A stretch of DNA of 52,317 nucleotides, taken from Candidatus Nomurabacteria bacterium. GTDB lineage: Bacteria > Patescibacteriota > Minisyncoccia > Phycocordibacterales > UBA9973. Below, piece after piece: positions 17,023 through 39,834 of the stretch. The stretch is from contig CALRFQ010000004.1 in assembly GCA_943356675.1 (NCBI GenBank), positions 1-52,317 on the forward strand. The letters are read 5' to 3'. The notes beneath the pieces were generated by a model, which worked only from the letters and a program-made list of their open reading frames with translations, was not told where the DNA came from and made no database searches. Within the stretch, counting starts at the first letter, position 1, and each line of letters opens with the position of its first letter. Made by a program: the position numbers and the translations under genes.

Positions 17023-17057
17023 CTAGAAACTAATCACTAGTTACTAGAACCTAATCA
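17023..17057 (+). repeat. Five degenerate 7-bp tandem units (CTAnnnA/C)
   Basis: ctagaaa ctaatca ctagtta ctagaac ctaatca fill the secE-nusG spacer. Confidence 0.75.
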
Positions 17058-17058
17058 T

Positions 17059-17607
17059 ATGGCAAAACAAGAACTAAGAGGAGAGCGAAATTGGTATGCG
17101 ATTCACACTTACGCAGGATATGAGAATGCGGTTCTTCGTAATCTTCGTCAGCGTATTGATTCACTAGGTATGAATGACAAGATTTTCAATGTCGTCGTTC
17201 CGACTGAAAAGAAAATAAAAATTAAGGGTAGTAAGCGTGCTGAAGTAGAAGAGAAGATATACCCAGGTTATGTACTTGTAGATATGATTGTGGATGACAA
17301 CTCTTGGTATGTAGTCCGTAATACTCCTCGTGTGACAGGGTTCGTCGGAGCTGGAGTAAACCCTGTGCCACTTGATAAAAAGGAGGTGGATGAACTCTTC
17401 GCGAAGATGGATGGCAATGAAAAAGCAAAACACCAGATTGACCTGTCGCTCGAAGAAATGGTTCGCATAGCTGATGGACCGTTTAAAGATTTGGAAGGAA
17501 AGGTTTCAGAGATTGATCAAGATCGTGGAAAGGTGAAGGTGCTCGTATCAATGTTCGGCCGTGAGACACCAGTAGAGCTTGATTTCCTTCAGATAAAGAA
17601 ATTGTAA
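17059..17607 (+). CDS. nusG: Transcription termination/antitermination factor NusG
   Basis: WYAIHTYAGYE, YPGYVLVDM, VRNTPRVTGFVG, and a KOW domain ending FGRETPVEL. Confidence 0.98.
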   Translation: MAKQELRGERNWYAIHTYAGYENAVLRNLRQRIDSLGMNDKIFNVVVPTEKKIKIKGSKRAEVEEKIYPGYVLVDMIVDDNSWYVVRNTPRVTGFVGAGVNPVPLDKKEVDELFAKMDGNEKAKHQIDLSLEEMVRIADGPFKDLEGKVSEIDQDRGKVKVLVSMFGRETPVELDFLQIKKL

Positions 17608-17689
17608 TTGGACATTTATTTATATATTGGGCGCTTCTCCCGAAATACAAATAAATATATGAAAAGTATTATTTAAATAAATTAATTAT

Positions 17690-18115
17690 ATGGCAAAGAA
17701 AATAACAAAAAAAGTAAAGTTACAAATTCAAGCTGCGAAGGCCACTCCTGCGCCACCACTAGGTCCTGCCCTCGGTCAGGCTGGAGTGAACATTGCGGAA
17801 TTCTGTCAGAAGTTTAACGCGGCAACGCAAGCTATGGCAGGGGACATTGTGGGAGTTCAGATTTCAGTTTACGAAGATCGTACTTATGATTTCGTAGTGA
17901 AGACTCCACCAGTAGCAGGTCTTATCTTTAAGGCTGCAGGTGTGGAGAGTGGTTCAGGTAAGCCAAATACTTCAAAAGTAGGCAAGATCACAAAGGCGCA
18001 AGTCCGTGCTATTGCTGAGAAGAAAATGCCAGACCTAAACGCAAAGAACATTGAAGGAGCAATGAAAATCATCGAAGGTTCTGCTCGTTCAGCTGGTATC
18101 ACAATAGTAGACTAA
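17690..18115 (+). CDS. rplK: 50S ribosomal protein L11
   Basis: [27 protein letters not shown]. Confidence 0.98.
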
Positions 18116-18124
18116 TACATAAAG

Positions 18125-18161
18125 ATTCCCCGCCAATTTAAAACATAGGCGGGGGATTTTT
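18125..18161 (+). terminator. Intrinsic terminator directly after rplK
   Basis: TCCCCGCC…GGCGGGGGA followed by a T-tract. Confidence 0.8.
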
Positions 18162-18168
18162 ATTTTAT

Positions 18169-19194
18169 ATGAAGAAAAATAATAAAAAGAAAATTCCATA
18201 CCTCACAGCTCTTGTAAAAAAGCTTGCTCCGAAAATCGGTGCGAAGGTAGTAGTGGAGCCAGAGTGGGGAATAACAGCTCAAATAAAATACAAGAATGGC
18301 GTAGTACGGTCACTTCGTATGTATACACTCGATCTCAATCCTATTGCTTCATCTGATATCGCTCGCGATAAAGACTATGCGAAATACTTTATGAAAGAGA
18401 GTGGCTATCCTGTGGCGGAAGGTGATACTGTGTATAGCGACGCTTGGGCAGATGCTATAGGTAGTAATAAGAAACTTTCTTATGGAATTAAATACGCGAA
18501 GAAGCTCAGCTACCCTGTTATAGTGAAGCCAAATAGTAAGAGTATGGGTGTGGGGGTGTGCGTAGCTCACTCTGAAAAGGAACTCACTTCAGCGCTTAAG
18601 GAAATATGGAAAGGCGACAAAATTGCAATCATTGAGCGATATATGCCAGGGCGAGATTATCGGATAGTTGTACTCGATGGGGAAATTATTTCTACATATG
18701 AACGCACACAGCTTTCTGTGGTAGGTGACGGCAAGAATACAATTTTGAAATTACTTGAAATAAAGCAAAAGAATTTCATAAAAGAGAATCGGGATACAAA
18801 AATAAATTTCAAGGACAGGAGAATAAAATTGAAATTAAAAAAACAGAGATACACACTTTCAAGTGTGATTTCAAAAGGGGAGAAAGTATACTTGCTCGAC
18901 AATGCGAATCTTTCGACCGGTGGCGATGCTTCTGATGTGACGCAAACAATTTCAAATAGCTTCAAGAAGATAGCTACAAACCTCACTCGTGATATGGGCC
19001 TACGAATAGCAGGGGTGGATATTATGGTCACGAAGGGGGATATTACAAAAAATGTGAAGAATTGTGAATACTATATTATCGAAATCAATGCTGCTCCAGG
19101 GCTTGATCACTATGTGACTACAGGTCCTGCGCAAAAGAAGATCGTGGAAGCAATGTATCTTAAGGTCCTAAAGGCTCTTGGGAAAAATAAATAA
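18169..19194 (+). CDS. ATP-grasp ligase (similar to the cyanophycin-synthetase N-half / GshF ATP-grasp domain)
   Basis: PVIVKPN…GVGV, IERYMPGRDYRIVV, GDGKNTI, NANLSTGG, AGVDI, EINAAPGL. Confidence 0.85.
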   Translation: MKKNNKKKIPYLTALVKKLAPKIGAKVVVEPEWGITAQIKYKNGVVRSLRMYTLDLNPIASSDIARDKDYAKYFMKESGYPVAEGDTVYSDAWADAIGSNKKLSYGIKYAKKLSYPVIVKPNSKSMGVGVCVAHSEKELTSALKEIWKGDKIAIIERYMPGRDYRIVVLDGEIISTYERTQLSVVGDGKNTILKLLEIKQKNFIKENRDTKINFKDRRIKLKLKKQRYTLSSVISKGEKVYLLDNANLSTGGDASDVTQTISNSFKKIATNLTRDMGLRIAGVDIMVTKGDITKNVKNCEYYIIEINAAPGLDHYVTTGPAQKKIVEAMYLKVLKALGKNK

Positions 19195-19212
19195 AAGGAA
19201 TATAATATACAT

Positions 19213-19542
19213 ATGGTAGATTTAAAGGAATTACAAAAGGAAGTAATAAGAAATAAAATCGAAAAAGGCTTCAATACTAGTGATATGGCGCTTGAATTTT
19301 GCCGTGCTCATGAGGAACTCTCAGAAGCATTCTCAAAGTACAACAAGAATCAGGATGGTGTTGCGGAAGAGTTTGCTGATGTGGCGATATTTCTTCTCGG
19401 CATGTGTGAATCACTTGGCTACGACATGGAGAAAGAATTAGTTAGAAAGATTGAGATAAATAAAAATCGTAAATACATCAAGAGTAAATCTCCAGATGGT
19501 AAAGATGTTTTCATAAGAGTGAAGAGCGATATAGATCCCTGA
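19213..19542 (+). CDS. MazG-like nucleotide pyrophosphohydrolase
   Basis: HEELSE…EEFADV helix motif and KIEINKNR. Confidence 0.8.
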   Translation: MVDLKELQKEVIRNKIEKGFNTSDMALEFCRAHEELSEAFSKYNKNQDGVAEEFADVAIFLLGMCESLGYDMEKELVRKIEINKNRKYIKSKSPDGKDVFIRVKSDIDP

Positions 19543-19544
19543 AT

Positions 19545-19571
19545 AAAAAACAGCCTAACGGCTGTTTTTTT
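19545..19571. terminator. Bidirectional terminator overlapping the folA stop codon
   Basis: AAAAAACAGCC-taac-GGCTGTTTTTT. Confidence 0.8.
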
Positions 19572-20052
19572 CATAGAGTACAAAATCGCAATTGAAATTA
19601 TTTTTCTCATCATGTGTGTGTTGTTCGTGCGAGACTTCTTTCCAGAAGGCAGGGTCTATAATAGGGAAGAATGCATCGGCATCGAAGTTGCCATCCACAT
19701 GTGTGATATAGAGTCTGTCTGCATGGTCCATAGCTTGCTTGTATATCTCTGCGCCACCAATTATGAAGACTTCGTCATTTATATCGTATCTAAATAGATC
19801 TATCGCTTCTGTGAGAGAGTGCACTACTTCTACTCCTTCTGCCACATAGGAAACGTCACGAGTGATTACAATGTTTCTTCTGTTTGGCAGTGGTTTCCCA
19901 ATAGACTCGAAAGTTTTGCGTCCCATTATTACAGGGTGGCCACTTGTCGTATCACGGAAGTGCTTCATATCTATCGGCAAATCCCAAAGAAGTTCATTAT
20001 TCTTCCCGATGGCATTATTTTTACCGATAGCTACGATTATTGAAAGTATCAT
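19555..20052 (-). CDS. folA: Dihydrofolate reductase
   Basis: IGKNNELLWDLPIDMKHF, IMGRKTFESI, LPNRRNIV, IIGGAEIY, DAFFP. Confidence 0.97.
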   Translation of the reverse strand: MILSIIVAIGKNNAIGKNNELLWDLPIDMKHFRDTTSGHPVIMGRKTFESIGKPLPNRRNIVITRDVSYVAEGVEVVHSLTEAIDLFRYDINDEVFIIGGAEIYKQAMDHADRLYITHVDGNFDADAFFPIIDPAFWKEVSHEQHTHDEKNNFNCDFVLYEKNSR

Positions 20053-20053
20053 A

Positions 20054-20335
20054 TTATTTCTTATACATCTTATTTAAAACTTTCGCAAAGCCACCATTCT
20101 TGTCTTGAAGCTCTTTAGAACCTCTGGTAATTGTGCCGATACCAATCTTAAGATCTTCAGCAATAGCCCACTGTTTCTCACCTTTATAAAGCCTATGCAT
20201 TATCTCCCAGCGCTTCGGTAGGGCATTGTATTCGCGGGCAGTAAGTATATCTTCAAGGAATGAGTTAAGTAGTGTAGTGTCCTTCGCAGCCACCATAAAT
20301 GCTTTTATGAGTTCCTCTTTGTAAGTATTTTTCAT
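20054..20335 (-). CDS. TrpR/YerC family transcriptional repressor
   Basis: LTAREYNALPKRWEI…Q..IAEDLKIGIGTITRGSKEL. The 'TITRGS' recognition helix is identical to that of TrpR. 1 nt from folA, so likely co-transcribed. Confidence 0.85.
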   Translation of the reverse strand: MKNTYKEELIKAFMVAAKDTTLLNSFLEDILTAREYNALPKRWEIMHRLYKGEKQWAIAEDLKIGIGTITRGSKELQDKNGGFAKVLNKMYKK

Positions 20336-20374
20336 GTACCCAAATTATACTCCAAAAACCCAGAATTTAAAATA

Positions 20375-20392
20375 CTGCGTACTAGTACGCAG
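20375..20392. promoter_or_regulatory. Perfect 18-bp palindrome CTGCGTACTAGTACGCAG, candidate TrpR-family operator
   Basis: Lies just upstream of the promoter of the TrpR-like gene (-10 at 20344-20349, minus strand). Has an ACTAGT core. Confidence 0.6.
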
Positions 20393-20399
20393 GTATAAA

Positions 20400-20430
20400 A
20401 ATCCCCCGCTTGTTTAGGCCAGCAGGGGAC
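20400..20430 (-). terminator. Probable terminator of 20449..20781
   Basis: Imperfect TCCCCCGCT…AGCAGGGGA stem with a minus-strand T-run. Confidence 0.5.
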
Positions 20431-20448
20431 TCTATTTTTTAGAGAAAA

Positions 20449-20781
20449 TTAAATTTTCACTAGTACACCTTCGGCAATCCATCTATCGATAAATTCCTTC
20501 TCGAAAAAAAGTTTGAGTTCGAATATGAAATATCCGTCTTTTCTTTCTTCAAGATGGTATTCTTGACTGTAATTGATTTTGCCCTCTTCTGTGGATACAT
20601 GCCAGCCGGACCCAGTGTAATAATTAAATTTGGCATCTATTGTTGCCTTATATTTTTTGAAAGAACTAATATCAGGTAGTTCTTGTACCTGGTTTGAAGT
20701 TTTGATTTGGGAGCCTTCATTTACTCCTTCGAAACTTTGATCACCCTGACCTTCAGCTCCTGATATATGATTGATGCACAT
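20449..20781 (-). CDS. Hypothetical protein (110 aa)
   Basis: ORF from ATG 20781 (MCINHISG…), with its own promoter and terminator. No recognised motif. Confidence 0.55.
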   Translation of the reverse strand: MCINHISGAEGQGDQSFEGVNEGSQIKTSNQVQELPDISSFKKYKATIDAKFNYYTGSGWHVSTEEGKINYSQEYHLEERKDGYFIFELKLFFEKEFIDRWIAEGVLVKI

Positions 20782-20804
20782 GTACTTTTTAGGTAGCAAG
20801 TAAA

Positions 20805-20850
20805 TATACTTGCATACTAGTATACTAGTATGCAAGTATAAAAAATGCAA
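20805..20850 (-). promoter_or_regulatory. Promoter TTGCAT-N17-TAGTAT overlapped by a perfect 36-bp palindrome (20805-20840)
   Basis: TATACTTGCATACTAGTA|TACTAGTATGCAAGTATA, containing ACTAGT-AT-ACTAGT. Confidence 0.7.
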
Positions 20851-20855
20851 GGGGA

Positions 20856-20893
20856 TATAGAAAACAGCACATTGTATTGTGCTGTTTTCTATA
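20856..20893 (-). terminator. Terminator downstream of thyA
   Basis: TATAGAAAACAGCACA-ttgtat-TGTGCTGTTTTCTATA. Confidence 0.75.
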
Positions 20894-20914
20894 AGTAGGT
20901 TTGTCTGTATATTT

Positions 20915-21748: not shown

Positions 21749-21778
21749 ATGTTCGATTATACAATAGAATATAAATAT
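21749..21778. promoter_or_regulatory. Back-to-back divergent -10 boxes in a 30-bp spacer
   Basis: Minus-strand TATAAT (21756-21761) lies 7 nt before the thyA ATG. Plus-strand TAGAAT (21765-21770) lies 8 nt before the deaminase ATG. Confidence 0.65.
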
Positions 21779-22267: not shown

Positions 22268-22277
22268 AATTAGATGA

Positions 22278-22306
22278 AAAAGCTAGCTCATTGAGCTAGC
22301 TTTTTT
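22278..22306 (+). terminator. Intrinsic terminator
   Basis: AAAAGCTAGCTC-att-GAGCTAGCTTTTTT. Confidence 0.85.
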
Positions 22307-28337: not shown

Positions 28338-28743
28338 AAAATTAAAAGAAGATGCGAAGTTGCCTACATATGCAAACCCGGGGGATGTGGGTATGGATAT
28401 GTATGCGATGGAGACAGTGACTATTCCTCCTATGGGGCACCACAGATTTTGGCATGGATTTGCACTGGAGTTTGAGAATGGCTATGCGGCTATAGTGAAG
28501 GATAAATCGAGCATTTCTAAAGCGGGGCTTCACACTATGGGAGGAGTTTTCGACGCGGGATTTAGAGGAGAATATAATACGCACGTAGTAAACCTTGGAA
28601 GCGAAGCGTATACTGTGGAAGCTGGCGACAAGGTGGCACAGCTCATCATTTACCCTGTGGCTATTGCGGAACTTGAGGAATCTGATACATTAAGTGAGTC
28701 AGTGCGTGGGGAAGGAAGCTTCGGCAGTACAGGCAAAAAGTAA
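28321..28743 (+). CDS. dut: dUTP diphosphatase (trimeric)
   Basis: GMDM, KSS, GGVFDAGFRGE, AQL, RGEGSFGSTG. Confidence 0.95.
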   Translation: MKIKIRKLKEDAKLPTYANPGDVGMDMYAMETVTIPPMGHHRFWHGFALEFENGYAAIVKDKSSISKAGLHTMGGVFDAGFRGEYNTHVVNLGSEAYTVEAGDKVAQLIIYPVAIAELEESDTLSESVRGEGSFGSTGKK

Positions 28744-28744
28744 T

Positions 28745-30469
28745 ATGGAAACACAGATAAAGAATTTAATTAAAGATGCACTTAAGAACCTCGGCATAGA
28801 AGCGAAGGCTATAGTGCTCGAGCACCCAGCGGATATAAAGATGGGGGATTATTCTACGAACGTTGCCATGGCTTATGCAAAAGCTCTCAAGATGAACCCA
28901 AAGGAATTGGCAGAGAAAATCGTGGGAGGAATAAATAAAATATCAGAAATTGAAAAAATCGAAGTTGCTGGTCCTGGCTTTATAAACTTCTATCTATCTC
29001 GCGAATTTTTTGCAAATTCTATAAAAGAAATTTTAAATAATAAAGAAAATTGGGGTAAAAATAATATTTCAAAAGGAAAGAAGATTATGGTGGAGTATAC
29101 AGACCCAAATCCTTTCAAACCATTCCATATTGGTCACCTTATGACGAATGCCATAGGAGAGTCACTTGCTCGTATTACAGAATTCTCTGGTGCGGATACT
29201 GTGCGTGCAAACTATCAAGGTGATGTAGGTATGCATGTGGCGAAGTCTATGTACGGGATTTTCAATTCTAAAGAATATAAAGAAAGTGGAATTCCAAAAT
29301 TAGGAAGTTCTGAGGCAGCTGTGTGGATAGGTGAATGCTATTCGAAAGGTAGTGATGCATATGACAATGATGCTGACGCTAAAAAGGAAATAGAAAGTTT
29401 TAATAAAAAAGTTTATGACAAGAGCGATGAAAAGGTAAATGAAGTTTATGATTGGGGTAGAAGTGTTACCCTAGAAGCCTTTGAAGAAATTTACAAAACT
29501 TTAGGAACAAAGTTCAAGCATTACTTTTTTGAAAGTGTAATGGCACCAATTGGCGAGAAGATAGTTCGAGAAAATATGGGAAATGTGTTTGAAGAATCCG
29601 AAGGCGCCATAGTATTTCATGCTGAGAATTATGACCCCAAGCTTCATACTCGTGTATTTATTACGTCCCTCGGAATTCCACTTTATGAGACGAAAGAAAT
29701 TGGACTTACCGTTACAAAATTTGAAAAAGAACAAAACCTCGACCTTTCTATAGTAGTTACTGCTATCGAGCAAGGTGAATATATGAAAGTAGTTGCGAAA
29801 GCTATGTCACTGCTTCATCCAGAGCTCGAAATGAAGATGAAGCATATTACTCACGGAATGATGCGTCTTACAACAGGGAAGATGAGTTCAAGAAAAGGGA
29901 ATGTAATTACTGGAGAGTCACTACTTCGTGATTCTATTTCCACAATTTTAGAAAAAGTACAAGAGAGGGATATGAGCGAGGATGAGAAGAAAGAGGTGGC
30001 AGAAATTGTGGGAGTATCTGCGCTCAAATATTCAATCTTAAAATCTTCGATGGGATCAGACATTATTTATGACTTCGATAAGTCTATATCTTTCGAAGGG
30101 GATTCAGGTCCGTACCTTCAGTACACAGTTGTGCGTGCAAGTGCGATACTCCGAAAGGCAGAGGAAGCAGGCCTATCACCTGTAACCTTTGACCTATTAC
30201 CTGTTCCAAACGAGATTACGAGTTTGGAACACATGCTCTATCAATTCCCTGAAGTCGTCGCTCGCGCATATGAATCACTTGAACCTCACCATATAGCCAC
30301 ATACCTTACTGAGCTTGCGAGCGCCTTTAACTCATTTTATGGCAATACTCAAATAATAAACAAAGAAGACCCAAATTCAGGTTACCGCGTAGCCCTCGTG
30401 GAAGCTTTCTATAATACTATGAAAAACGGCTTATACCTTTTAGGTATCAAAACTCCTGAAAAGATGTAG
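28745..30469 (+). CDS. argS: Arginine--tRNA ligase
   Basis: GDYSTN, AGPGFINF, PNPFKPFHIGH, KMSSRKG, GPYLQY, C-terminal PEKM. Start at METQ 28745. Confidence 0.97.
   Translation: METQIKNLIKDALKNLGIEAKAIVLEHPADIKMGDYSTNVAMAYAKALKMNPKELAEKIVGGINKISEIEKIEVAGPGFINFYLSREFFANSIKEILNNKENWGKNNISKGKKIMVEYTDPNPFKPFHIGHLMTNAIGESLARITEFSGADTVRANYQGDVGMHVAKSMYGIFNSKEYKESGIPKLGSSEAAVWIGECYSKGSDAYDNDADAKKEIESFNKKVYDKSDEKVNEVYDWGRSVTLEAFEEIYKTLGTKFKHYFFESVMAPIGEKIVRENMGNVFEESEGAIVFHAENYDPKLHTRVFITSLGIPLYETKEIGLTVTKFEKEQNLDLSIVVTAIEQGEYMKVVAKAMSLLHPELEMKMKHITHGMMRLTTGKMSSRKGNVITGESLLRDSISTILEKVQERDMSEDEKKEVAEIVGVSALKYSILKSSMGSDIIYDFDKSISFEGDSGPYLQYTVVRASAILRKAEEAGLSPVTFDLLPVPNEITSLEHMLYQFPEVVARAYESLEPHHIATYLTELASAFNSFYGNTQIINKEDPNSGYRVALVEAFYNTMKNGLYLLGIKTPEKM
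30173..30207 (+). repeat. Five degenerate 7-bp units (CTnnnAC) inside argS
   Basis: ctatcac ctgtaac ctttgac ctattac ctgttcc, encoding LSPVTFDLLPVP. Confidence 0.65.
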
Positions 30470-30482: not shown

Positions 30483-30608
30483 TTATGCTATAATATTAAA
30501 ACTTAATAGTTGACTTTTTATTATGATGAAAAAATATTTATCAATTTTTGTTTTATCTTTTTTGTTCCTAAGCACTAATAGTGCCTTGGCTGTTTATAAT
30601 GCGTCAGA
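30483..30608 (+). repeat. Near-identical duplicate of 32431..32554 (promoter, 5' UTR and signal peptide)
   Basis: Direct comparison of the two stretches. Confidence 0.9.
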
Positions 30609-32376
30609 CGTGATAGGGCAACGTGATTCTTCAAATAATGCTGTTTTTACAACAAGTGCTGCAAATAACGGTAGTACGGTAAGTGCACGAGGGCTTTCTA
30701 GTGAAGTTCGTGCTGTAAAATTAGACACAGTACATCACCGATTGTTCGTTGTGGATAGAAATAACAATCGTGTACTTGTGTACAACCTTGATTCCAGTAA
30801 TAATCTTCTTGATACAGATGCTGATAATGTATTTGGACAAGTTGATTTAACTGCTACTGCATCATCTTGTACTACCGCGACAGGTTTAAATTCACCTACT
30901 GGCGCAGAATATGATTCTGCAAATAATCGTCTATTTGTTGCTATGACCAATAGTGGAAGTGCTTATAGTCGTATTGTTGTTTATGATTTATCTTCTGGTA
31001 TTACAGATGGGATGGCTGCAGTAAATGTACTTGGTCAAGCAAATCTTACAACATGTAATTCTAGAGTAAGTACGGCGAGTAACGTATATTTCCCATTTGA
31101 TATGAAGTACGACACTACTACAGGGTTATTGTATGTAGCAGATTTGTCTCGTAACCGTGCACTTGTTTTTGATGCTCGTCCAGCAAGTTCTGCTCCTATG
31201 ACTGTGTGTGGTGCTACTACAACAGGTATAGTAGACAATATGGATGCATCATGTGTTCTTGGTCAACCAAACTTTTCTACAGTTAGTTCAGGTAATACAA
31301 TAGCAAAAATGAATGGTACATTTGGTTTTGAAATCGATACGACTAATCATCGTTTATATGTATCTGAATATGCTTCCAATCGTATTAAGGTTTATGACAC
31401 ATCAGCATTAGCAACAAGCATGGATGCTTCATATGTTTTAGGTCAGACTGATTTTTCTGGAGCTACATCAGGTGTAACACAATCGAAATTTAATTCTCCG
31501 ACTGCGATGGCGTTTGATGCCACTACTGGACTACTTTATGTAACTGATGAAAACAACCACCGTGTAATGGTTTTTGATGTATCAGGAACTATATCTAACG
31601 GAATGTCTGCATCGTATATTCTTGGTGCAGATGATTTTACAACAATAAATAGTGGACCTACAGCATCTTTAATGGGAGTAGTTTTTGGTGTTGCTATTGA
31701 TACAAACAACAAGAATTTATTTGTGGTGGATAAAACTAATGACCGTGTTCTTCTTTTTAAACCAACTATTGCAATTCAATCAAGCACATTGAATTCAGGT
31801 AAAGTAACTAGAACATATTCAGAAAGTATATCGATAAGTGATAATCAACAGACTCCTTCTCTTGAGCTAGTTAGTGGAACGTTACCAACTGGAATTTCAA
31901 TTTCAGGTACATCATTAGTGGGTAGAGCTACAGAATTTGGAACTTACAATTTTGTATTAAAGGCAGTTGATACTGGCATACACGGAATTTTCTCTTCAGA
32001 TGACACTAATTTCAGCATAGACATTCAATACCTACCTAGTACTTCTGGATCTACTGCTTCAAGCTTTGGTTCAAAAGTAAACAATAATACTCAAAGTTCA
32101 ATTCCTGTAAGTACTGAAAATGATACATCTATTAAGGTGTGTGCCGCATTTGGTAAGCCAGTTAAGTTTGGTAGAAATAATGATAAAGATGAGGTAAAGC
32201 TATGGCAACAATTCTTAAACAATAGTGAAGGTGAGAAATTAGCTGTTGATGGAGGATACGGATTAAAGAGCAAGCTAGCTGTTGCTAGATTCCAAAAGAA
32301 GCACAACCTAGGATCAGATGGAATTATAGGTCCAAAAACAGAAGAAGAGGGTAATAAAACAAAGACTTGTTATTAA
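30523..32376 (+). CDS. Secreted NHL-repeat (beta-propeller) protein with Ig-like domain and C-terminal peptidoglycan-binding domain
   Basis: Signal peptide (…SALA), repeated RLFVxDxxNxRVLV and VLGQxDF units, Ig-like SGTLPTGISI…GTYNFVLKA, and VKLWQQFLN…DGGYG..S..AV..FQKK..L..DGIIGP. Confidence 0.85.
   Translation: MMKKYLSIFVLSFLFLSTNSALAVYNASDVIGQRDSSNNAVFTTSAANNGSTVSARGLSSEVRAVKLDTVHHRLFVVDRNNNRVLVYNLDSSNNLLDTDADNVFGQVDLTATASSCTTATGLNSPTGAEYDSANNRLFVAMTNSGSAYSRIVVYDLSSGITDGMAAVNVLGQANLTTCNSRVSTASNVYFPFDMKYDTTTGLLYVADLSRNRALVFDARPASSAPMTVCGATTTGIVDNMDASCVLGQPNFSTVSSGNTIAKMNGTFGFEIDTTNHRLYVSEYASNRIKVYDTSALATSMDASYVLGQTDFSGATSGVTQSKFNSPTAMAFDATTGLLYVTDENNHRVMVFDVSGTISNGMSASYILGADDFTTINSGPTASLMGVVFGVAIDTNNKNLFVVDKTNDRVLLFKPTIAIQSSTLNSGKVTRTYSESISISDNQQTPSLELVSGTLPTGISISGTSLVGRATEFGTYNFVLKAVDTGIHGIFSSDDTNFSIDIQYLPSTSGSTASSFGSKVNNNTQSSIPVSTENDTSIKVCAAFGKPVKFGRNNDKDEVKLWQQFLNNSEGEKLAVDGGYGLKSKLAVARFQKKHNLGSDGIIGPKTEEEGNKTKTCY
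31762..32054 (+). repeat. 293-bp high-identity duplicate of 33708..34000 (Ig-like domain)
   Basis: Same length and colinear, encoding PTIAIQSSTLNSGKVTR…QYLPSTSGS in both. Confidence 0.9.
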
Positions 32377-32471: not shown

Positions 32472-34292
32472 ATGAAAAAATATTTATCAATTTTTGTTTT
32501 ATCTTTTTTGTTCCTAAGCACTAATAGTGCCTTGGCTGTTTATAATGCGTCAGATGTTATAGGGCAGCGTGACGGGTCTAATAATGCGTCTTATACTACA
32601 AACACCGCAGCTGTAACAGCAAGTGGTTTGTCTGCTTATATACGAGGTATTGCCCTAGACGAAGTACATCATCGTCTGTTTATATCTGACGGATCAAACA
32701 ACCGTGTTTTGGTTTACAATCTTGACTCAGCAAATAAACTTATAGACACTACCGCTGACAATGTTCTAGGTCAACCAGATATGACATCAAACACGTCTTT
32801 ATGTACCAGTATGTCTGGTTTAGCTGGCCCCAGAGGTTTGTCTTATGACCCATTAAACAATCGCCTTTTTGTTACGATGGATGGTATGACTGATTACAGA
32901 ACAGGGCATGGTGTTTTTGTATACGACGTAGCTTCAATTACAGACGGTGAAGCGGCTGTGAATGTGCTAGGCAGGTCAACTATGGCATCTTGTGCAAACA
33001 CAAGTGTATACAATGCTGTAAATATTATGTTTCCGTACGGTGTTGCCTTTGATGTAGAAACAGGCCTATTATATGTTTCTGACCTATCTCATAGCCGTGT
33101 TGTCGCTTTTGATGCACGACCAGCTGGTAGTGCATCTACTTCATTTTGTGGCGCCAGTGCCACCACAGGTATTGCAGACTTTATGTCAGCTTCATGTGTG
33201 ATAGGTAAAGCAAACTTTACTTCGTCTACTTCAGCTCCTTTATCTGATACTGTTATGGGTAACAATTCAGGTGTAACTATAGATTATGTACACCACAGGC
33301 TTTTTGTTAGTCAGTATGCTTCAAATAGAATTACAGTATATGACATATCAAGTTTGGCAAACGGAATGGCTGCATCATATGTTATCGGGCAGGCAGACTT
33401 TTCTACATCTGCAGCTGGATTAACCGCATCTACTGTAAACAATGTCAGCTCTACAAGTTATGACTCTGTAAATAATTACCTTTATGCATCAGATGAATTA
33501 AATAGACGCGTTCTAGTATATAAATTAGACAATATAGCAAACGGCATGTCTGCTTCATACATACTTGGCCAAGACGATTTTACTACAAACACAGCAAGTC
33601 TGACACAGCATGGTTTCGGAGACAAGCCAGGTGAATCTTATTATGATACAACAAATCAACGCCTGTATGTTTTAGAACAAGCTGGTGCACGCGCATTAGT
33701 TTTCCAGCCAACAATCGCAATCCAATCAAGCACATTAAATTCAGGTAAAGTGACTAGGTCATATTCAGAAAGTATAACGATAAGTGATAATCAACAGACT
33801 CCTTCCCTTGAACTAGTTAGTGGAACGTTACCAAGTGGAATTTCAATTTCAGGTACGTCACTAGTGGGTAGAGCTATAGAATTTGGAACTTACAATTTTG
33901 TACTAAAAGCAATAGATACTGGTATTCATGGTATTTTCTCCTCAGATAATACTAATTTTAGTATTGATATTCAGTATCTACCTAGTACTTCTGGTTCTAC
34001 AATTATGGGTTCAATACCCATAGAGATTAATAATAATGATTCATCAAGTAAAGTTTGTGTAGCATTTAGTAAAACTATAAAAGCTGGTCAAAAGAATGAT
34101 AAAGATGAAGTTAAGTTATGGCAGCAATTTTTAAACAATAGTGAAAATGAGAACTTAGTGATCGACGGGGGGTATGGTGCGAAGAGTAAAGCTGCAATTG
34201 TTAAATTTCAAAAGAAAAATAATTTGGGTTCTGATGGTATCATAGGACCGGTTACTCGTCTTCCAGCAAATATGATCCTTGGATGTAAGTAA
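32472..34292 (+). CDS. Secreted NHL-repeat/Ig/peptidoglycan-binding protein (paralog)
   Basis: Same architecture as 30523..32376. Confidence 0.85.
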   Translation: MKKYLSIFVLSFLFLSTNSALAVYNASDVIGQRDGSNNASYTTNTAAVTASGLSAYIRGIALDEVHHRLFISDGSNNRVLVYNLDSANKLIDTTADNVLGQPDMTSNTSLCTSMSGLAGPRGLSYDPLNNRLFVTMDGMTDYRTGHGVFVYDVASITDGEAAVNVLGRSTMASCANTSVYNAVNIMFPYGVAFDVETGLLYVSDLSHSRVVAFDARPAGSASTSFCGASATTGIADFMSASCVIGKANFTSSTSAPLSDTVMGNNSGVTIDYVHHRLFVSQYASNRITVYDISSLANGMAASYVIGQADFSTSAAGLTASTVNNVSSTSYDSVNNYLYASDELNRRVLVYKLDNIANGMSASYILGQDDFTTNTASLTQHGFGDKPGESYYDTTNQRLYVLEQAGARALVFQPTIAIQSSTLNSGKVTRSYSESITISDNQQTPSLELVSGTLPSGISISGTSLVGRAIEFGTYNFVLKAIDTGIHGIFSSDNTNFSIDIQYLPSTSGSTIMGSIPIEINNNDSSSKVCVAFSKTIKAGQKNDKDEVKLWQQFLNNSENENLVIDGGYGAKSKAAIVKFQKKNNLGSDGIIGPVTRLPANMILGCK

Positions 34293-34351: not shown

Positions 34352-36304
34352 ATGAAACGGAAGTTAATATTTAAGGTAATATCTGTATTTATAATAATTT
34401 CAGTATTTTTTATTGCTTATAAAAACTACTCACACGCTGCATTTAGTACAGTAGACTGTACAAACGGCGCACACCTCACAACACTAGGGGGTATATCTCA
34501 GGCTGAATGTCAGGCATTAGAAGATTTATATACAGATACAGCCGGTGCATCGTGGACCACTAAGACAAACTGGGATACTGTTTCTGATGTTGGTACATGG
34601 TACGGGGTAACTCGTACTGGTACACATGTTACAACTATTCTATTAAATAGTAATAATCTGGTTGGGACTTTACCCTCATCTATCTCTAGTTTAACAGGGT
34701 TAGTAAGTTTCAATGTGCAAAATAATACACTTTCTGGTCCTATACCATCTTTTACTTCAAATACTGCTCTGATTAATCTTATTATGAGCTATAATCAATT
34801 CACTGGATCAATTCCATCATTAAGTACAAATACATTATTAGAATATGTTTATTTTAATAATAATCAACTCACTGGGTCTATTCCATCTTTATCAACCAAT
34901 ACCGTATTGGTTGATTTATATATTAATAATAATCAACTCACTGGGTCTATTCCATCACTAAGTACAAATACATTATTGAGATATGTTGATTTAGGATACA
35001 ATCAACTCACTGGGTCTATTCCATCCCTAACAACCAATACTACATTAGTTTATTTTTATGTTAATAATAATCAACTCACTGGGTCTATTCCATCATTAAC
35101 ACCAAATACATTATTGAAATATGTTGAGTTAAATAACAATCAGCTTACTGGATCTATTCCATCATTAACAGCAAATACAGTCCTAGAAGAATTTTATGTT
35201 AATAAAAATAATCTAAGTGGAGATATTCCAGATCTAACATCTTTTGCTTCACTTTTAGGTTCATTTGCTGAAAATGCTTTATATACCAGTTCTAGTACCA
35301 TAGATACAGCTGCAGATACTAAATTTTCTGAAAACTGGTCTGCTACGCAAACCATAGCTCCTACTGGAGTTGCTGCCACAGTATCAGGAACTGATATTAT
35401 TATTTCATGGAATCCTATAGAATATGCATCCATTGGGTCTTATAAAGTTTACTCAAGTACAGTTTCAGGTGGGCCGTACAGTACATTACAAGGCACCGTA
35501 GCTAGGACTGGTAGTCAAACACTTACTATTTCTGGTCTGAGTACTAATACGAATTATTATTTTATAGTTCAGTCGTATACACCAGACAACGGAACACAAC
35601 AAAATGTAGTAACTGCAGATTCAGCAGAAGTTTTAGGAAGAATTGCGAGGCGCTCAAGTTCTAGTGGAAGTTCTGGAAGAGTAATTCATACATATCCAAC
35701 AAGTGCGGATGCTTCTAAAATGAATATATCTTTAACCAATATTCCAACTTTAGTAAATAATATTGCCAAATTAAAGTGGAGCCCTATTGTTAATGCGGTC
35801 AGCATGGTGTTTTCTTTGGACTCAAATTTTATAAATGCAATAAGTATGCCATTCAAACAGGAATCAAATTTTATTTTACCAAGCGTTATTGGGACATATA
35901 ATATATACGCAAAACTCACTTCTTCTACTGGTGATTCATTGTATTTTAATCCAATCTTAGTAAAAATTGATAACATTTCAAAAATTAAGCTAGTGGAAAA
36001 GCCAATCGTTCCAAAAGTGATTAATAAAAAACCAACAGTAACTCCAATTAAAACTATAAAGACATGTGGACCGCTTAATAAATACTTAGAACCAGGAAGA
36101 GTAAATAATGATAAAAATGAAGTTAAGCTTTGGCAGAATTTCTTGAATAAATACGAGGGGGAGGAACTTGATGTAAATGGTAATTATGATTTACTAACTC
36201 AAGAAGCTGTCTTTCGGTATCAAGCTGTAAATAATATGAAAGTTGACGGAGTAATAGGATCCGCTACACGCCTACCAGCAAACAGAATCCTTGGCTGTAA
36301 GTAA
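34352..36304 (+). CDS. Secreted LRR + fibronectin type III + peptidoglycan-binding protein
   Basis: Signal peptide, LRR cap (ECQALEDLY…W…WYGVT), NNQLTGSIPSL repeats, FN3 (ISWN…YKVY…LSTNTNYYF.V), and a PG-binding tail. Confidence 0.85.
   Translation: MKRKLIFKVISVFIIISVFFIAYKNYSHAAFSTVDCTNGAHLTTLGGISQAECQALEDLYTDTAGASWTTKTNWDTVSDVGTWYGVTRTGTHVTTILLNSNNLVGTLPSSISSLTGLVSFNVQNNTLSGPIPSFTSNTALINLIMSYNQFTGSIPSLSTNTLLEYVYFNNNQLTGSIPSLSTNTVLVDLYINNNQLTGSIPSLSTNTLLRYVDLGYNQLTGSIPSLTTNTTLVYFYVNNNQLTGSIPSLTPNTLLKYVELNNNQLTGSIPSLTANTVLEEFYVNKNNLSGDIPDLTSFASLLGSFAENALYTSSSTIDTAADTKFSENWSATQTIAPTGVAATVSGTDIIISWNPIEYASIGSYKVYSSTVSGGPYSTLQGTVARTGSQTLTISGLSTNTNYYFIVQSYTPDNGTQQNVVTADSAEVLGRIARRSSSSGSSGRVIHTYPTSADASKMNISLTNIPTLVNNIAKLKWSPIVNAVSMVFSLDSNFINAISMPFKQESNFILPSVIGTYNIYAKLTSSTGDSLYFNPILVKIDNISKIKLVEKPIVPKVINKKPTVTPIKTIKTCGPLNKYLEPGRVNNDKNEVKLWQNFLNKYEGEELDVNGNYDLLTQEAVFRYQAVNNMKVDGVIGSATRLPANRILGCK
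34793..35206 (+). repeat. Six 69-bp (23-aa) LRR tandem repeats
   Basis: Units start at 34793, 34862, 34931, 35000, 35069 and 35138. The core AATCAACTCACTGGGTCTATTCCATC is identical in the four middle copies. Confidence 0.9.
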
Positions 36305-36351
36305 ATCTATTTCTTTCAAAAAAGCTTATTTTTTGGTAGTATTTACTGTAT

Positions 36352-39300
36352 ATGGATGAAACAGTTAAGAAATCAAATAATGCAGAAAGGGAAGAGAAGA
36401 TACTGAAATTCTGGCAGGAGAATGATACTTTTCAAAAAAGTTTAAAAAAGGATGCTCCAAAAGGGAACTATGTGTTTTATGATGGGCCACCTTTCGCTAC
36501 AGGGCTCCCTCACTATGGGCATATCTTGGGCTCTACTGCTAAAGACGCCATAGGCCGCTACAAGACCATGCAGGGCTTTACTGTGCCACGTAAGTGGGGC
36601 TGGGATTGCCATGGGCTTCCTATTGAGAACATTGTAGAGAAAGATCTTGGGATTTCTGGAAAGAAGGGCATTGAAGAATACGGGCTAGAGAAATTCTCAG
36701 AGCATGCTCGAAGTAAGGTCCTCACATATGTGGGTGATTGGAAGAGGACAGTGGATCGTATGGGGCGCTGGGTGGACTTCGATAATTCATACAAGACTAT
36801 GGACAACACTTTCATCGAAAGTGTGTGGTGGGCTCTCGGTGAACTAAACAAAAAAGAATTACTTTACGAAGGAGTGCGCGTGCTTGCATATTGCCCACGT
36901 TGTGAGACTCCAATTGCCAATTCTGAAATAGCGATGGACAACAGTTATAAGGATATAACTGATATTTCTGTTTATGTGAAGTTTGAATTAGTGAGTGAAC
37001 CAAAAACATACCTACTTGCATGGACGACAACTCCTTGGACTCTACCGGGGAACACTGCTGTAGCAGTGAATAAAGATTTCACCTATGTATATGTAAAAAA
37101 TAATAAAGAAGATGTGAATGAGACTTTAATTCTTGAAAAGGGTAGATTTGAAATACTGAAAGATAAATTTACAAATCCTGAAATATTAAAAGAGGTTTCC
37201 GGTAGTGACCTTATCGGACTCTCATACTTGCCAGTATTTAGTTACTACAAGGATACAGATATGCCAAATAAAGAAAATATTTGGAAAGTTTGGCATGCTG
37301 ATTTTATAACATCGGATTCAGGTACTGGTATCGCTCACGAAGCTCCAGCCTTCGGAGAGGATGATATGAATTTAGCAAAAGCAAACAATATTCCTTTTAT
37401 TCGCCATGTGGAGCCAAACGGAACTTTCGTAAGCATGGTTACGGATTTCGCTGGAGAGAAAGCGAAACCAAAAGAGGATCACCAGTCCGGCGACGTGCTC
37501 ATCATAAAGTACCTTGCGAAAGAGGGCGCACTTTTTGCAAAAGAAAAAATCATCCACTCATATCCTCACTGCTACCGCTGTGAGACACCACTACTATACT
37601 ATGCACTTCCTTCTTGGTTTGTGAACATCCAAAAGGTGAAGGCGAAGGCTCTCGAAGAGGCTAAATCTATGAATTGGATCCCTTCGCACCTTAAAGATGG
37701 ACGCTTCAACAATATACTCGAGAATGCACCAGACTGGACCATCTCTCGCAATCGCTTCTGGGCGAGCCCACTTCCTATTTGGAAAAACAAAGATGGGAAA
37801 ATACTTTTTGTAAATTCACTTGAAGATTTGAAAAATAAAACTAAAAAAAGTGGGAATAAATATTTCGGAATGCGACATGGTTATGGTCAGCATATGGAGA
37901 AGGGGGTAGTGTCATCACTCGACCATGATTCATATCACCTTACAGAAGAAGGCAGAAACGAGGTAGTAAAAAGCGCTACAGATTTGAAGAATAAAGGTAT
38001 TACAAAAATCTTTACTTCACCACTAATTCGCACGAAAGAAACTGCAAAGATCGCTGCAGGAATTTTAGGTATTAATCCAAGTGAGATAGTAGTAGATGAC
38101 AGGATTCGTGAGTATGAATTCGGAGAATTTAATGGCAAGCCTTGGCAAGAGTATATCGATTATCGTGATCAACATATCGCCACTTATGATGAGCCACTAG
38201 GAGGGTCAAGCTTACTTGAAACGAAAAAGCGTTTCGCTGATTTTATTTATGAAATTGAAAATAATTTCCAGAATGAAAATATTTTAATTGTGACTCACGG
38301 TGTTTTCTTCGAAACAATACCAGCGATAATTGAAGGAGCAAATAATGAAAGATCACTTGAAATAGTTTTTGAGGTCTTTAACAATGCACGAATACAACCA
38401 GCAGAAGTAAGAGAATATGATTTTACTCCAATCCCTCACAATGCAAAATACGAGCTTGATATGCATCGCCCGTATATTGATAGGATTACACTAGTGGATG
38501 AAAATGTAGATGAATACAAGAGAATTCCTGAGGTGATAGACTGCTGGTTTGAATCTGGCTCAATGCCATTTGCTCAGGATCACTATCCGTTTGAGCGCCC
38601 AAACTGGCAGAAAGAGAATTTCCCAGCTGGCTTTGTGGCAGAATATATTGCTCAGACTCGCACATGGTTCTACTACTCACATATTATTTCTACTATTTTA
38701 TTCGGGCAAGCTCCATTTCAGAATATTATTTCTACAGGTACGGTACTCGCAGAAGATGGAGAGAAGATGAGTAAGTCCAAGAATAATTTCACAGACCCTT
38801 GGATAATGTTTAATAAAGTGGGCGTGGATCCTATACGCTTCTATCTTATGAGTTCACAGGTAATGCGTGGGGAGGATTTGAACTTCTCAGATAAGGCAGT
38901 GCAAGATGTGGCAAGTAAAATCGTAGGACGCTTGGATAATGTGGTAGCATTTTATGAACTATATCGTGATAAAAATCTAGAACCTAGAACCTCTAACCTA
39001 GAACCTAGTTCAAATGCTTTAGATATCTGGATACTTGCAAGATTAAGTGAGACTATAAATGAAGTAACTCTCAATATGGATGCATATGATTTAGCGCTTG
39101 CTTCTAGACCTTTTGAAAGCTTCATAGAAGACCTTTCCACTTGGTATCTTCGCCGTTCACGCGACCGAATAAAGGATGGCGACAAAGAAGCAAAATCCAC
39201 AATGTATTTCGTGCTCAAAAATTTGGTGAAGGTTATGGCTCCATTTACACCTTTCATAGCAGAAGATGTATGGCAGAGGCTCAAGACTGAAGGGGATGCT

Positions 39301-39834
39301 GAAAGTGTGCATTTAGCTAAATGGCCTGAAGGGCAGGTTCTAGTTTCTAGTGATAAGGTTCTAGTAGAAATGCAACAAGTTAGAGATGTAGTTACACTTG
39401 GACTCGAAGCTCGTCAAAAAATGGGTATTAAGGTTCGTCAACCTCTAAATAGCTTAAAGGTTGTAGGTAGTAGGTTACAGGATGAGTATATAGAAATTTT
39501 GAAAGATGAGTTGAATATTAAAAATATTGAGATAGTAGAAGGGGAGGCACTAAATGTGGAGCTGGATACAAATATCACATTAGAATTAAAACAAGAAGGG
39601 GACTACCGTGAATTACTTCGTGCTGTGCAGGACCTAAGAAAGACAGAAGGACTTAACCCAAGTGATGTTGTGACTCTCGTTATTTATACAGATGAAAATG
39701 GGAAAAATATTGTGGAAATGTTTAAGAATGATTTTATGAAAACTGCCGGACTTAAAGAAATAAAAATGGAAGAGTTCGATGGGCTTGAAGTGAAAGTAGG
39801 GGAACTAGTATTTAAAATAAAAATTCTCAAATAA
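36352..39834 (+). CDS. ileS: Isoleucine--tRNA ligase (type 2) with an inserted histidine-phosphatase domain
   Basis: DGPPFATGLPHYGH, GWDCHGLP, WTTTPWTLP, DWTISRNRFW, KMSKS. The insert carries RHG, SPLIRTKETA and VTHG. Confidence 0.95.
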   Translation: MDETVKKSNNAEREEKILKFWQENDTFQKSLKKDAPKGNYVFYDGPPFATGLPHYGHILGSTAKDAIGRYKTMQGFTVPRKWGWDCHGLPIENIVEKDLGISGKKGIEEYGLEKFSEHARSKVLTYVGDWKRTVDRMGRWVDFDNSYKTMDNTFIESVWWALGELNKKELLYEGVRVLAYCPRCETPIANSEIAMDNSYKDITDISVYVKFELVSEPKTYLLAWTTTPWTLPGNTAVAVNKDFTYVYVKNNKEDVNETLILEKGRFEILKDKFTNPEILKEVSGSDLIGLSYLPVFSYYKDTDMPNKENIWKVWHADFITSDSGTGIAHEAPAFGEDDMNLAKANNIPFIRHVEPNGTFVSMVTDFAGEKAKPKEDHQSGDVLIIKYLAKEGALFAKEKIIHSYPHCYRCETPLLYYALPSWFVNIQKVKAKALEEAKSMNWIPSHLKDGRFNNILENAPDWTISRNRFWASPLPIWKNKDGKILFVNSLEDLKNKTKKSGNKYFGMRHGYGQHMEKGVVSSLDHDSYHLTEEGRNEVVKSATDLKNKGITKIFTSPLIRTKETAKIAAGILGINPSEIVVDDRIREYEFGEFNGKPWQEYIDYRDQHIATYDEPLGGSSLLETKKRFADFIYEIENNFQNENILIVTHGVFFETIPAIIEGANNERSLEIVFEVFNNARIQPAEVREYDFTPIPHNAKYELDMHRPYIDRITLVDENVDEYKRIPEVIDCWFESGSMPFAQDHYPFERPNWQKENFPAGFVAEYIAQTRTWFYYSHIISTILFGQAPFQNIISTGTVLAEDGEKMSKSKNNFTDPWIMFNKVGVDPIRFYLMSSQVMRGEDLNFSDKAVQDVASKIVGRLDNVVAFYELYRDKNLEPRTSNLEPSSNALDIWILARLSETINEVTLNMDAYDLALASRPFESFIEDLSTWYLRRSRDRIKDGDKEAKSTMYFVLKNLVKVMAPFTPFIAEDVWQRLKTEGDAESVHLAKWPEGQVLVSSDKVLVEMQQVRDVVTLGLEARQKMGIKVRQPLNSLKVVGSRLQDEYIEILKDELNIKNIEIVEGEALNVELDTNITLELKQEGDYRELLRAVQDLRKTEGLNPSDVVTLVIYTDENGKNIVEMFKNDFMKTAGLKEIKMEEFDGLEVKVGELVFKIKILK
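38977..39011 (+). repeat. Five 7-bp units (CTAGAAC consensus) inside ileS
   Basis: ctagaac ctagaac ctctaac ctagaac ctagttc, encoding LEPRTSNLEPSS. Confidence 0.8.
39337..39364 (-). repeat. Four 7-bp units in inverted orientation (GTTCTAG) inside ileS
   Basis: gttctag tttctag tgataag gttctag. Confidence 0.65.
39460..39480 (-). repeat. Three 7-bp units (GTnnnAG) inside ileS
   Basis: gttgtag gtagtag gttacag, whose reverse complement is CTnnnAC. Confidence 0.55.

Follow-up and report, generated by a model that had tools for sequence, protein, structure and literature searches.

Tandem repeats of seven nucleotides have been known in bacteria since the reports on short tandemly repeated repetitive (STRR) heptamers. 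These are said to have been found in heterocyst-forming cyanobacteria by Mazel in 1990, and copies within the RNase P RNA gene were reportedly noted by Vioque in 1997. Here, degenerate heptamer arrays were analysed in a freshwater Candidatus Nomurabacteria bacterium, five of them within a single contig of 52,317 bp (labelled C4; the window, that is, the whole stretch of DNA analysed) of a genome, G000, of 719,351 bp in 25 contigs with 34-40% G+C per contig. These arrays, one in the secE-nusG spacer, one in argS and three in ileS, belong to a genus-wide family of dispersed elements that are very short (~25-45 nt) and consist of 7-nt units with a conserved core of 4-5 nt; in G000 an array has 3-6 units.

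Direct repeats of the heptamer TAACTGA have been described in marine Beggiatoaceae and also in some Cyanobacteria and Bacteroidetes (MacGregor 2015, PMC4679880, cited here and below from extracts of the article). There, 170 sets of 2-6 units were counted, some interrupted by related 7-mers, and 132 sets were directed at a start codon that lacks a ribosome-binding site; those that stop 1 nt short of it form the largest class. On the forward strand every frame of the repeats contains stops, and the repeats can overlap the stop codon of the preceding gene. A few reverse copies lie in open reading frames (ORFs), and a role in translation via S1, cold-shock or CsrA-like proteins was proposed (PMC4679880). 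As far as those extracts go, the TAACTGA repeats and the G000 family have in common the 2-6 tandem units of 7 nt, the interruption of some sets by related 7-mers, the mostly intergenic location near starts that lack a Shine-Dalgarno sequence, including those of ribosomal-protein operons, the forward-strand stops in every frame with possible overlap of a preceding stop codon, the presence of a few copies in ORFs in the orientation free of stops, and a suspected mobility. The unit TAACTGA itself is not present in the G000 arrays, so that the two are the same kind of element but different sequence families. Unlike TAACTGA, the G000 family has several core types and much more degenerate units, and it includes in-frame copies that avoid stops in the interior linkers of essential synthetases, in a genus with genomes of 0.4-1.0 Mb. 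It also forms inverted pairs of fixed polarity that run from stop to start codon, whereas one inverted repeat is given for the 170 TAACTGA sets (PMC4679880).

The comparison with cyanobacterial STRR that was made in the original prediction for this DNA proved apt, as dispersed tandem heptamers of three core types were found in G000. Both families comprise several heptamer types per genome, which are dispersed, mostly intergenic, present in both orientations and tolerated in variable parts of essential genes. They differ in sequence and lineage, and STRR arrays are usually longer and more regular; none of the STRR1-3 units is among the arrays listed for G000, for a second genome of the genus (G077) or for the genus loci. 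A stop-to-start position and a fixed hairpin polarity are not known to have been described for STRR. Small dispersed repeats (SDR), which Elhai reportedly described in Nostoc punctiforme in 2008, are said to be mobile, tens of nucleotides long, located both between genes and in frame, and associated with heptamer arrays.

Other heptamers, GGGAATC and GGGGA(T/C)T, have been described in Xanthomonas and Nostoc (Rehm 2015, PMC4692102, in extract), where Calothrix heptanucleotides are also mentioned. Like the G000 arrays, they are intergenic, in some cases inverted repeats that can form stem-loops, and variable between close relatives at the same junction; they are, however, G-rich and quadruplex-forming (PMC4692102), whereas the G000 arrays have no runs of G. 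The REP/REPIN-RAYT elements are also short, hairpin-prone extragenic repeats, often arranged as inverted pairs between co-directional genes (PMC3116915, in extract), and Y1-transposase-related genes are present in the genus as well. REP units are imperfect palindromes of 20-40 nt. REP elements differ in having no known 7-nt periodicity, in flanking a RAYT gene and in reaching hundreds of copies, compared with ~20 per genome for the G000 family. Searches of open-access text returned no report of heptamer repeats in the candidate phyla radiation/Patescibacteria or in other uncultured lineages with small genomes. The G000 family is the same kind of element as the known heptamer repeats, in a new lineage, and differs from them in the several degenerate core types, the stop-to-start pairs of fixed polarity, the identical copies at unrelated junctions and the edited in-frame copies in synthetase genes.

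All five arrays of the window, which lie on the forward strand, were read as originally described. A C/A-rich element of CTAG type (17019..17057) fills the spacer between secE (16828..17013; Pfam SecE, 1.8e-16) and nusG (17059..17607; Pfam NusG and KOW) and stops 1 nt short of the ATG of nusG; the units at 17023-17057 are CTAGAAA, CTAATCA, CTAGTTA, CTAGAAC and CTAATCA, and its core is the 27-mer at 17023-17049. An ACCT-type array (30168..30208), with the units CTATCAC, CTGTAAC, CTTTGAC, CTATTAC and CTGTTCC at 30173-30207, lies in frame in argS (28694..30469; Pfam tRNA-synt_1d, DALR_1 and Arg_tRNA_synt_N), where its translation, LSPVTFDLLPVP, forms part of a variable loop in the anticodon-binding (DALR) domain. 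The remaining three are in frame in ileS (36352..39834; Pfam tRNA-synt_1 and Anticodon_1; best PDB relative 8c8u). Array 1 is of CTAGAAC type (38971..39011; units CTAGAAC, CTAGAAC, CTCTAAC, CTAGAAC and CTAGTTC at 38977-39011) and encodes NLEPRTSNLEPSS in the linker before the anticodon-binding domain. Array 2, of GTTCTAG type (39337..39364; GTTCTAG, TTTCTAG, TGATAAG and GTTCTAG), encodes VLVSSDKVLV near the end of that domain, and array 3, of AGGT type (39454..39481; GTTGTAG, GTAGTAG and GTTACAG at 39460-39480), encodes KVVGSRLQ in the linker between Anticodon_1 and DUF5915. The in-frame reading of the coding copies, originally noted with the peptides LSPVTFDLLPVP, LEPRTSNLEPSS and VLVSSDKVLV, was confirmed.

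The degeneracy of these arrays is considerable. A base equals the one 7 nt ahead at 16/28 positions in 17023-17057, 20/28 in 30173-30207, 22/28 in 38977-39011, 11/21 in 39337-39364 and 10/14 in 39460-39480, and Tandem Repeats Finder (score >=30) reported 38977-39008 alone, as the other four arrays are too degenerate. When arrays were counted as at least three invariant columns across five successive units, with AT-rich and single-base-rich windows filtered out, 17019..17057, 30168..30208 and 38971..39011 passed, and 39454-39481 passed the equivalent test with four units. Array 2 (39337-39364), taken by itself, failed both tests, and has a nearly unit-for-unit match in the G068 ortholog.

A genome-wide scan for period 7, suggested in the original prediction, gave 14 arrays in G000, against which three Markov shuffles gave 2, 2 and 0. 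At periods 5, 8, 10 and 11 the counts were 0, 0, 3 and 5, at or below those of their own shuffles, and periods 6 and 9 were raised, as coding DNA would predict. The cores themselves recurred at a distance of 7 nt more often than expected from the background mean, with 22 versus 4.6 for CTAG, 22 versus 6.5 for ACCT and 13 versus 5.0 for AGGT. The excess was found again in G077, a single-contig genome of the same genus chosen for its completeness rather than for its arrays (9 arrays versus 0, 1, 2, 1 and 2 in shuffles), and in 58 unselected loci (220,473 bases) from the surroundings of ileS and nusG in other species of the genus (18 arrays at period 7 versus 1, 0, 0 and 3 at periods 5, 8, 10 and 11). 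Four CTAG cores at period 7 were present in 12/24 other genomes of the genus and in 20/300 other genomes of the order, and reversed-pattern controls gave 0 in 41, 93 and 301 genomes. Chance periodicity in AT-rich sequence might be invoked for 39337-39364 and 39460-39480, which are weak taken singly, but against the shuffles and other-period controls in three data sets and the empty reversed-pattern searches it is hardly credible, and for the family as a whole it is refuted.

CTAG-cored heptamer arrays of at least five units were also seen in Proteobacteria, Acidobacteria, Planctomycetes, Bacteroidetes, Cyanobacteria and others, with 16 such units in Aliivibrio fischeri ES114 as an example among the matches listed. 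This multi-phylum scan gave at least 123 stretches compared with ~0.5 estimated by chance, with no control for other tetramers. Among 80 of these at least 123 stretches, 42 were classed as near-perfect and 38 as mixed, and the studied genus was not named among the matches listed.

Three core types were recognized in G000, namely CTAG-nnn, AGGT-nnn/ACCT-nnn, and AAGTA-nn with its complement (AGTA/TACT), exemplified by units such as CTAGAAC, CTAGAAA, ACCTGTA and AAGTAGT. Further types occur in relatives, and the CTAG and AGGT types intergrade (AGGTTCTAGGTTATAG in locus L255 of G069). The family is dispersed in both orientations, as had been proposed; the suggestion that it is targeted to aminoacyl-tRNA synthetase genes did not hold, as only 5 of the ~20 arrays of G000 are coding and all the remaining ones lie in short spacers. 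In G000 and G077 the genes on both sides of these spacers are co-directional wherever both are long open frames; one spacer (C10 21033-21178) has a doubtful frame of 73 residues on one side. In the same two genomes the arrays start 0-9 nt past the upstream stop codon, or overlap it, and end 0-12 nt from the next start. Array-bearing junctions in G000 were secE-nusG, rpsF-ssb, ssb to the gene of a 23S-rRNA-intervening-sequence (IVS) protein, that gene to rpsR, rpsU-ybeY, atpE-atpF, alaS to the next gene, and four spacers of a secretion-like cluster on contig C5, the names ybeY, rpsU and those of the atp genes coming from reading of the translations only. The IVS protein gene, which stands between ssb and rpsR (L224:1102-1461; G000 C10 28102-28461), has arrays in both adjoining spacers.

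The longer spacers contain an inverted pair of arrays that can fold, with predicted energies of -23 to -46 kcal/mol (z -2.6 to -4.7). Among single arrays, the secE-nusG element (17014-17062) forms a small hairpin by itself (-9.1 kcal/mol, z -3.65), and the ACCT array before rpsR showed no folding (-2.1 kcal/mol, z 0.13). Polarity was scored in 97 arrays from G000, G077 and the genus loci, with a reverse-complement partner sought within 150 nt; some loci are orthologous and the counts are not independent. The partner lay downstream in 17/17 partnered G-skewed arrays and upstream in 17/18 partnered C-skewed arrays. The sole exception was a direct pair of AATTAC arrays in ileS of L038, which is doubtful because AATT is palindromic. 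An inverted pair is the same on both strands, and the polarity rule in the sense of the genes therefore reads as a TAG-rich G/T arm after the stop and a G-poor C/A arm before the ATG. A further candidate rule, that the G-rich arm is in phase with the upstream stop, held by eye for alaS and L255, failed for rpsF and was dropped.

The way in which the arrays reach their sites was approached through the 27-mer of the secE-nusG element (17023-17049), which was searched for in 93 species genomes of the genus, 0.4-1.0 Mb in size. Exact copies were found in G015, G050, G053 and G060 and thus, with G000, in 5/93 genomes; with up to 3 mismatches it was present in 19/93, and a reversed control gave 0. 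The exact copies stand at non-orthologous junctions: before nusG in G000, before a gene beginning MAKKITKK (rplK by position) in G060, in the rpsF-ssb spacer in G050 and before two other genes. In 15/20 distinct places the 27-mer is followed, 6-14 nt further on, by an ATG; four of these 15 are one orthologous junction. The secE-nusG element was absent in the closest relative, G052, and present in a related form in G072, G063 and G058.

At the rpsF-ssb junction, contigs from four runs, all of them DNA, were compared, and the contigs of X6 and X8 did not span the array pair; among 20 runs listed, a single one was RNA, with 0.05 of the words. A 524-nt contig from X9 differed from G000 at 2/189 positions on the ssb side and 13/305 on the rpsF side and skipped exactly the 107-nt inverted pair, in the place of which it had 30 other letters that resemble the short spacer of G052 and most relatives. 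G052 also lacks the pair, although its SSB is 98% identical. The pair was therefore acquired after G000 and a very similar lineage had separated. Its arms have 4/4 different units in one and 3/4 in the other, with all eight cores intact. Therefore, arrays arrive at new sites already degenerate.

Ordinary microsatellite behaviour, that is, slippage of the polymerase in place on a 7-nt unit followed by point mutation, agrees with the perfect arrays seen in relatives, such as (TTAGTGA) x14 in L003 (G015), (TACTACT) x3 in L231 (G049) and (GAATTAC) x4 in ileS of several species, and unit slippage therefore happens too. In L003 (1375-1476) the perfect (TTAGTGA) x14 stretch adjoins a degenerate arm of CTAG type and represents a recent unit expansion of one arm. 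The over-representation of heptamers in many bacterial genomes has also been ascribed to polymerase slippage, a view cited in PMC4692102 (in extract), and at its 5' end the rpsF-ssb pair looks like a seed (AGGTAT) present in the short spacer of the ancestor. However, the 107-nt pair was recently gained and yet its units already differ around intact cores, the same degenerate 27-mer is exact at non-orthologous sites in five species, and invariant cores stand beside varying other positions. Slippage in situ alone is insufficient, because it accounts neither for the identical 27-mers at non-orthologous junctions nor for the degenerate 107-nt pair absent from a closely similar contig; as the sole cause it is weakened and now looks improbable. 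The original proposal of a repeat that propagates beyond simple slippage was supported by the same two observations.

Copying probably proceeds from array to array by template switching or gene conversion, and within the quasi-palindromes one arm would be corrected against the other. Arms of the rpsF-ssb pair recur elsewhere: the argS array matches the 3' arm at 85% over 33 nt, ileS array 3 matches at 89% over 27 nt, and a match of 25/25 was found in G069. No full-length copy of the 117-nt rpsF-ssb module was found in G000 or in the 92 other genomes, in which the arms recurred alone, with unrelated loops. A miniature inverted-repeat transposable element (MITE), e.g. of the Correia type, was rejected in the absence of a conserved full-length element of this module in many copies.

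A link to RAYT genes was likewise rejected. Y1_Tnp was above the Pfam cut-off in 74/93 genomes of the genus, with up to 8 matches per genome, and these genes occur in genomes with and without CTAG arrays. G000 has three such genes (IS200-type, RAYT-like) at C9:23438-24175, C16:14355-15002 and C19:5672-6355, and G077 has seven, each of them flanked on both sides by its own palindrome of 19-25 nt. Small GC-rich palindromes (CCTGCCGG..GGCAGG or CCAGGC..GCCTGG) represent a second class of tiny mobile element. They were seen as in-frame insertions at those linker sites of ArgS and IleS that also carry heptamer arrays (L016, G013 ileS; L207, G013 argS; L223, G011 argS) and in spacers (L044-L046, L069 and L236), and the palindrome of L223 resembles one that flanks a Y1-like gene of G077.

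The coding copies were examined by comparison with 29 IleS and 30 ArgS orthologs. At the IleS array sites G000 is equal in length to the orthologs or 1-2 residues longer, and the IleS arrays are therefore not net insertions. Other species have heptamers of other types at the same sites: at site 1, (GCACACA) x3 in G013 and AGTA-type units in G041 and G054; at site 2, GTTCTAG in G068 and AATTACN in L034 and L038; at site 3, GAATTAC, CAATTAC or TAATTAC in 9/29 relatives, giving ELRITNYELRK or QLLITNYQLPK. The codons CGA, ACG and TAC in these arrays would not be expected to be favoured at such AT-richness; if they are truly disfavoured, the periodicity would belong to the DNA rather than to the protein. 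Array 1 is common to G052 (89% identity) and partly to G057. Array 2 is absent in G052, which has the same length there, and present in G068 (67% identity), and as the residues flanking it in G000 are more G068-like, recombination is suggested.

In ArgS, the loop has a short form in 18/30 orthologs and G000 is longer by 3-4 residues, so that the argS array is a genuine insertion in this loop, which belongs to the DALR domain. DALR_1 spans ArgS residues 475-591 (Pfam), and the array site is gap-rich in comparison with PDB 2zue. The same site has heptamer arrays (AATTACN, CTAGAAA or nnnACAA) in seven other species and small palindromes in two. Of the coding copies, which the original prediction took for insertions, only that of ArgS brings a net gain, of 3-4 residues; the three IleS copies lie in variable linkers whose length is similar in orthologs. 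G052, whose NusG and SSB are 98% identical and whose IleS C-terminus is 89% identical to those of G000, has an ArgS only 46% identical (G052:C3:16100-16972 versus window 29570-30469); ArgS of seven other species is also only 46% identical, and two ArgS types seem to circulate in the genus.

The reading frame has left its mark on these copies. The third unit of array 1 is CTCTAAC where CTAGAAC would give an in-frame TAG, and the third unit of array 2 is TGATAAG where TGACTAG would do so, with TAGCGAG in G068. A unit is altered wherever TAG would fall in frame, as expected from a process at the DNA level filtered by the reading frame. In G000, convincing coding arrays were found in argS and ileS only, a weak one at C5 43268-43295 resembling ordinary coding repetition, and 13/13 coding arrays of the 220-kb locus set were in ileS, which makes up an estimated ~1/3 of its bases. 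These data show in part that copies within genes survive only in the variable linkers of long proteins (ArgS and IleS), and only with the TAG-giving unit altered, and we infer that the coding copies are by-products.

The original prediction also held that complementary arrays in ileS could pair across ~330 nt of mRNA. The complementarity is real: the duplex of 38971-39014 with 39337-39364 was calculated at -30.3 kcal/mol versus -17.0 +/- 3.1 for shuffles, and within the ileS mRNA array 1 has its best partners in arrays 2 and 3, array 2 being the best. The pairing, however, is not conserved: of the two arrays, only array 1 is present in G052 and only array 2 in G068, and in most of the 29 relatives both are missing or arrays of other types are found. 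In addition, the order of the two arms is the reverse of that in the intergenic pairs of G000, and the duplex would be melted by translating ribosomes. Regulation of ileS by such pairing is therefore very improbable.

At the junctions, one array appeared to be under constraint. It links two genes in G081, G003, G057 and G021 and provides the upstream protein with its last five residues (LETKN) and its stop codon; the next ATG lies 5-7 nt beyond the end of the array. In all six pairs of species 34-35 of the 35 array positions are identical, compared with 72-79% in the 300 nt upstream. The arrays are dispensable yet can be held constant where they are kept, which points to selection on their sequence or to repeated conversion from other copies.

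The translational context of these junctions in G000 is also particular. GGAG or GAGG was found upstream of 22/733 crudely called genes, so that there is almost no Shine-Dalgarno signal, and position -1 was T in 65%. The distance between the end of an exact TATAAT and the start codon is 6, 7 or 8 nt in 54, 13 and 21 genes, respectively (88/733), versus 0-6 genes for any other distance; as this is a signature of leaderless transcripts, such transcripts seem to be common in G000. CTAAT, considered as a non-canonical ribosome-binding motif, had no preferred distance from start codons genome-wide. A conserved motif near the 3' end of 16S rRNA, searched for in order to read the anti-Shine-Dalgarno tail, was not found in the assembly, and Rfam 15 gave 0 matches at gathering score in the window, L224 and L007.

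Taken together, the best reading overall is that of a mobile junction element built of heptamers, copied between arrays and acting on mRNA at the junctions, to which we give about half of our confidence. The functional step taken alone, that the element may act on mRNA, is a little less likely than not. The G-poor arm would serve as an unstructured landing site before the ATG; through the complementary arm that follows the stop, initiation would be linked to termination at the upstream gene, or this arm would mark a site of processing.

Several observations weigh against a mobile junction element of this kind. Whole-spacer single arrays occur in both orientations, those of rpsU-ybeY and of ssb-IVS protein being G-rich in sense. 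Arrays occupy only ~12 of ~700 spacers of G000 and close relatives lack them at the same junctions, so that they are dispensable. The first 18 nt of the array of the four species encode the last five residues and the stop, and part of its conservation may thus be coding constraint. Several 3' arms end at a TATAAT located 6-8 nt before the ATG, and such an arm may therefore precede the transcript start and have no role in a leader. None of the Y1-transposase-like genes of G000 and G077 is flanked by a heptamer array. Finally, the gene calls in G000 are crude longest-ORF calls and the related genomes are not independent samples.

The main rival explanation is that the elements are purely selfish or neutral, with no function in cis, and spread by copying and slippage, being visible only where they are harmless, in spacers and variable linkers; the hairpin form and the polarity would then come from the mode of origin or from tolerance next to stop and start codons. 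This would fit the presence or absence of arrays at the same junction in close relatives, the few spacers occupied, the different heptamer types at the same permissive IleS and ArgS sites, and the coding copies, which show damage limitation only, by avoiding in-frame stops. It fits less well with an orthologous array that has hardly changed beside diverged coding DNA, with a polarity kept in 34/35 partnered arrays, and with a near-fixed distance from the 3' end to the ATG in those 15/20 places, which is found even with a long non-coding stretch upstream. We regard it as possible but rather unlikely.

A second alternative is a periodic binding code, in which one core in every 7 nt of RNA or DNA would be read by a protein or a ring oligomer, with the array-bearing junctions as a regulon. 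The HutP and TRAP families are known to read spaced UAG/GAG triplets. Conserved cores beside variable spacer positions and the proximity of the arrays to start codons are as such a code would require, and the same idea has been put forward for the TAACTGA repeats, with S1, Csp and CsrA as candidates (PMC4679880, in extract). Nevertheless, at least 5-6 core types at the same sites across species fit poorly with one reader protein. HutP and TRAP (PF09021 and PF02081) gave 0 matches in G000, with a positive control in Bacillus subtilis, and no co-varying gene was found, Y1_Tnp genes being present with and without CTAG arrays. This code is thus a doubtful explanation.

In a more specific form of action on mRNA, the stop-hairpin-start modules would be devices for translational coupling in a lineage that gave up the Shine-Dalgarno interaction, and the coding copies stray insertions. 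Since the G/T-rich arm starts at the stop and the C/A-rich arm ends at the ATG, the stem would bring a terminating ribosome beside the next start, and by unwinding or bypassing the stem the ribosome could be passed on, in a manner resembling shunting or termination-reinitiation. This is an unlikely proposal. If it were true, mobile modules could rewire the coupling between neighbouring genes.

Other features of the window were observed in the course of this analysis. A His_Phos_1 (histidine-phosphatase) domain (2e-25) lies within IleS residues 507-681, between the halves of the catalytic domain (window 36352-39834), and the IleS orthologs of the genus are open frames of similar length, with 1,150-1,241 residues where uncut. 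In the 650-residue ORF at 34352-36304, a tandem repeat of 69 nt (23 residues) is present in six copies at 34791-35209 and may be leucine-rich-repeat-like, judged from the DNA consensus alone. A 14-nt doublet, TTTATCATTTTTGT, was found at 30537-30566 and 32483-32512, near the starts of the neighbouring ORFs 30523-32376 and 32472-34292, which have ~610 residues each and are probably paralogues. At 20805-20890 there is a near-perfect palindrome of 34 nt with CTAG cores at period 8 (ATACTTGCATACTAG TAT ACTAGTATGCAAGTAT), followed by a terminator-like hairpin.

For the biology of heptamer repeats, the genus represents a compact comparative system in which their origin and role can be addressed. The rules of the family, i.e. 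the stop-to-start placement, the polarity, the identical copies, the recent gain and the reading-frame filter, which is revealed by the in-frame copies in essential synthetase genes, make it testable whether such repeats spread by copying or by slippage, and also whether they act in translation without a Shine-Dalgarno site.

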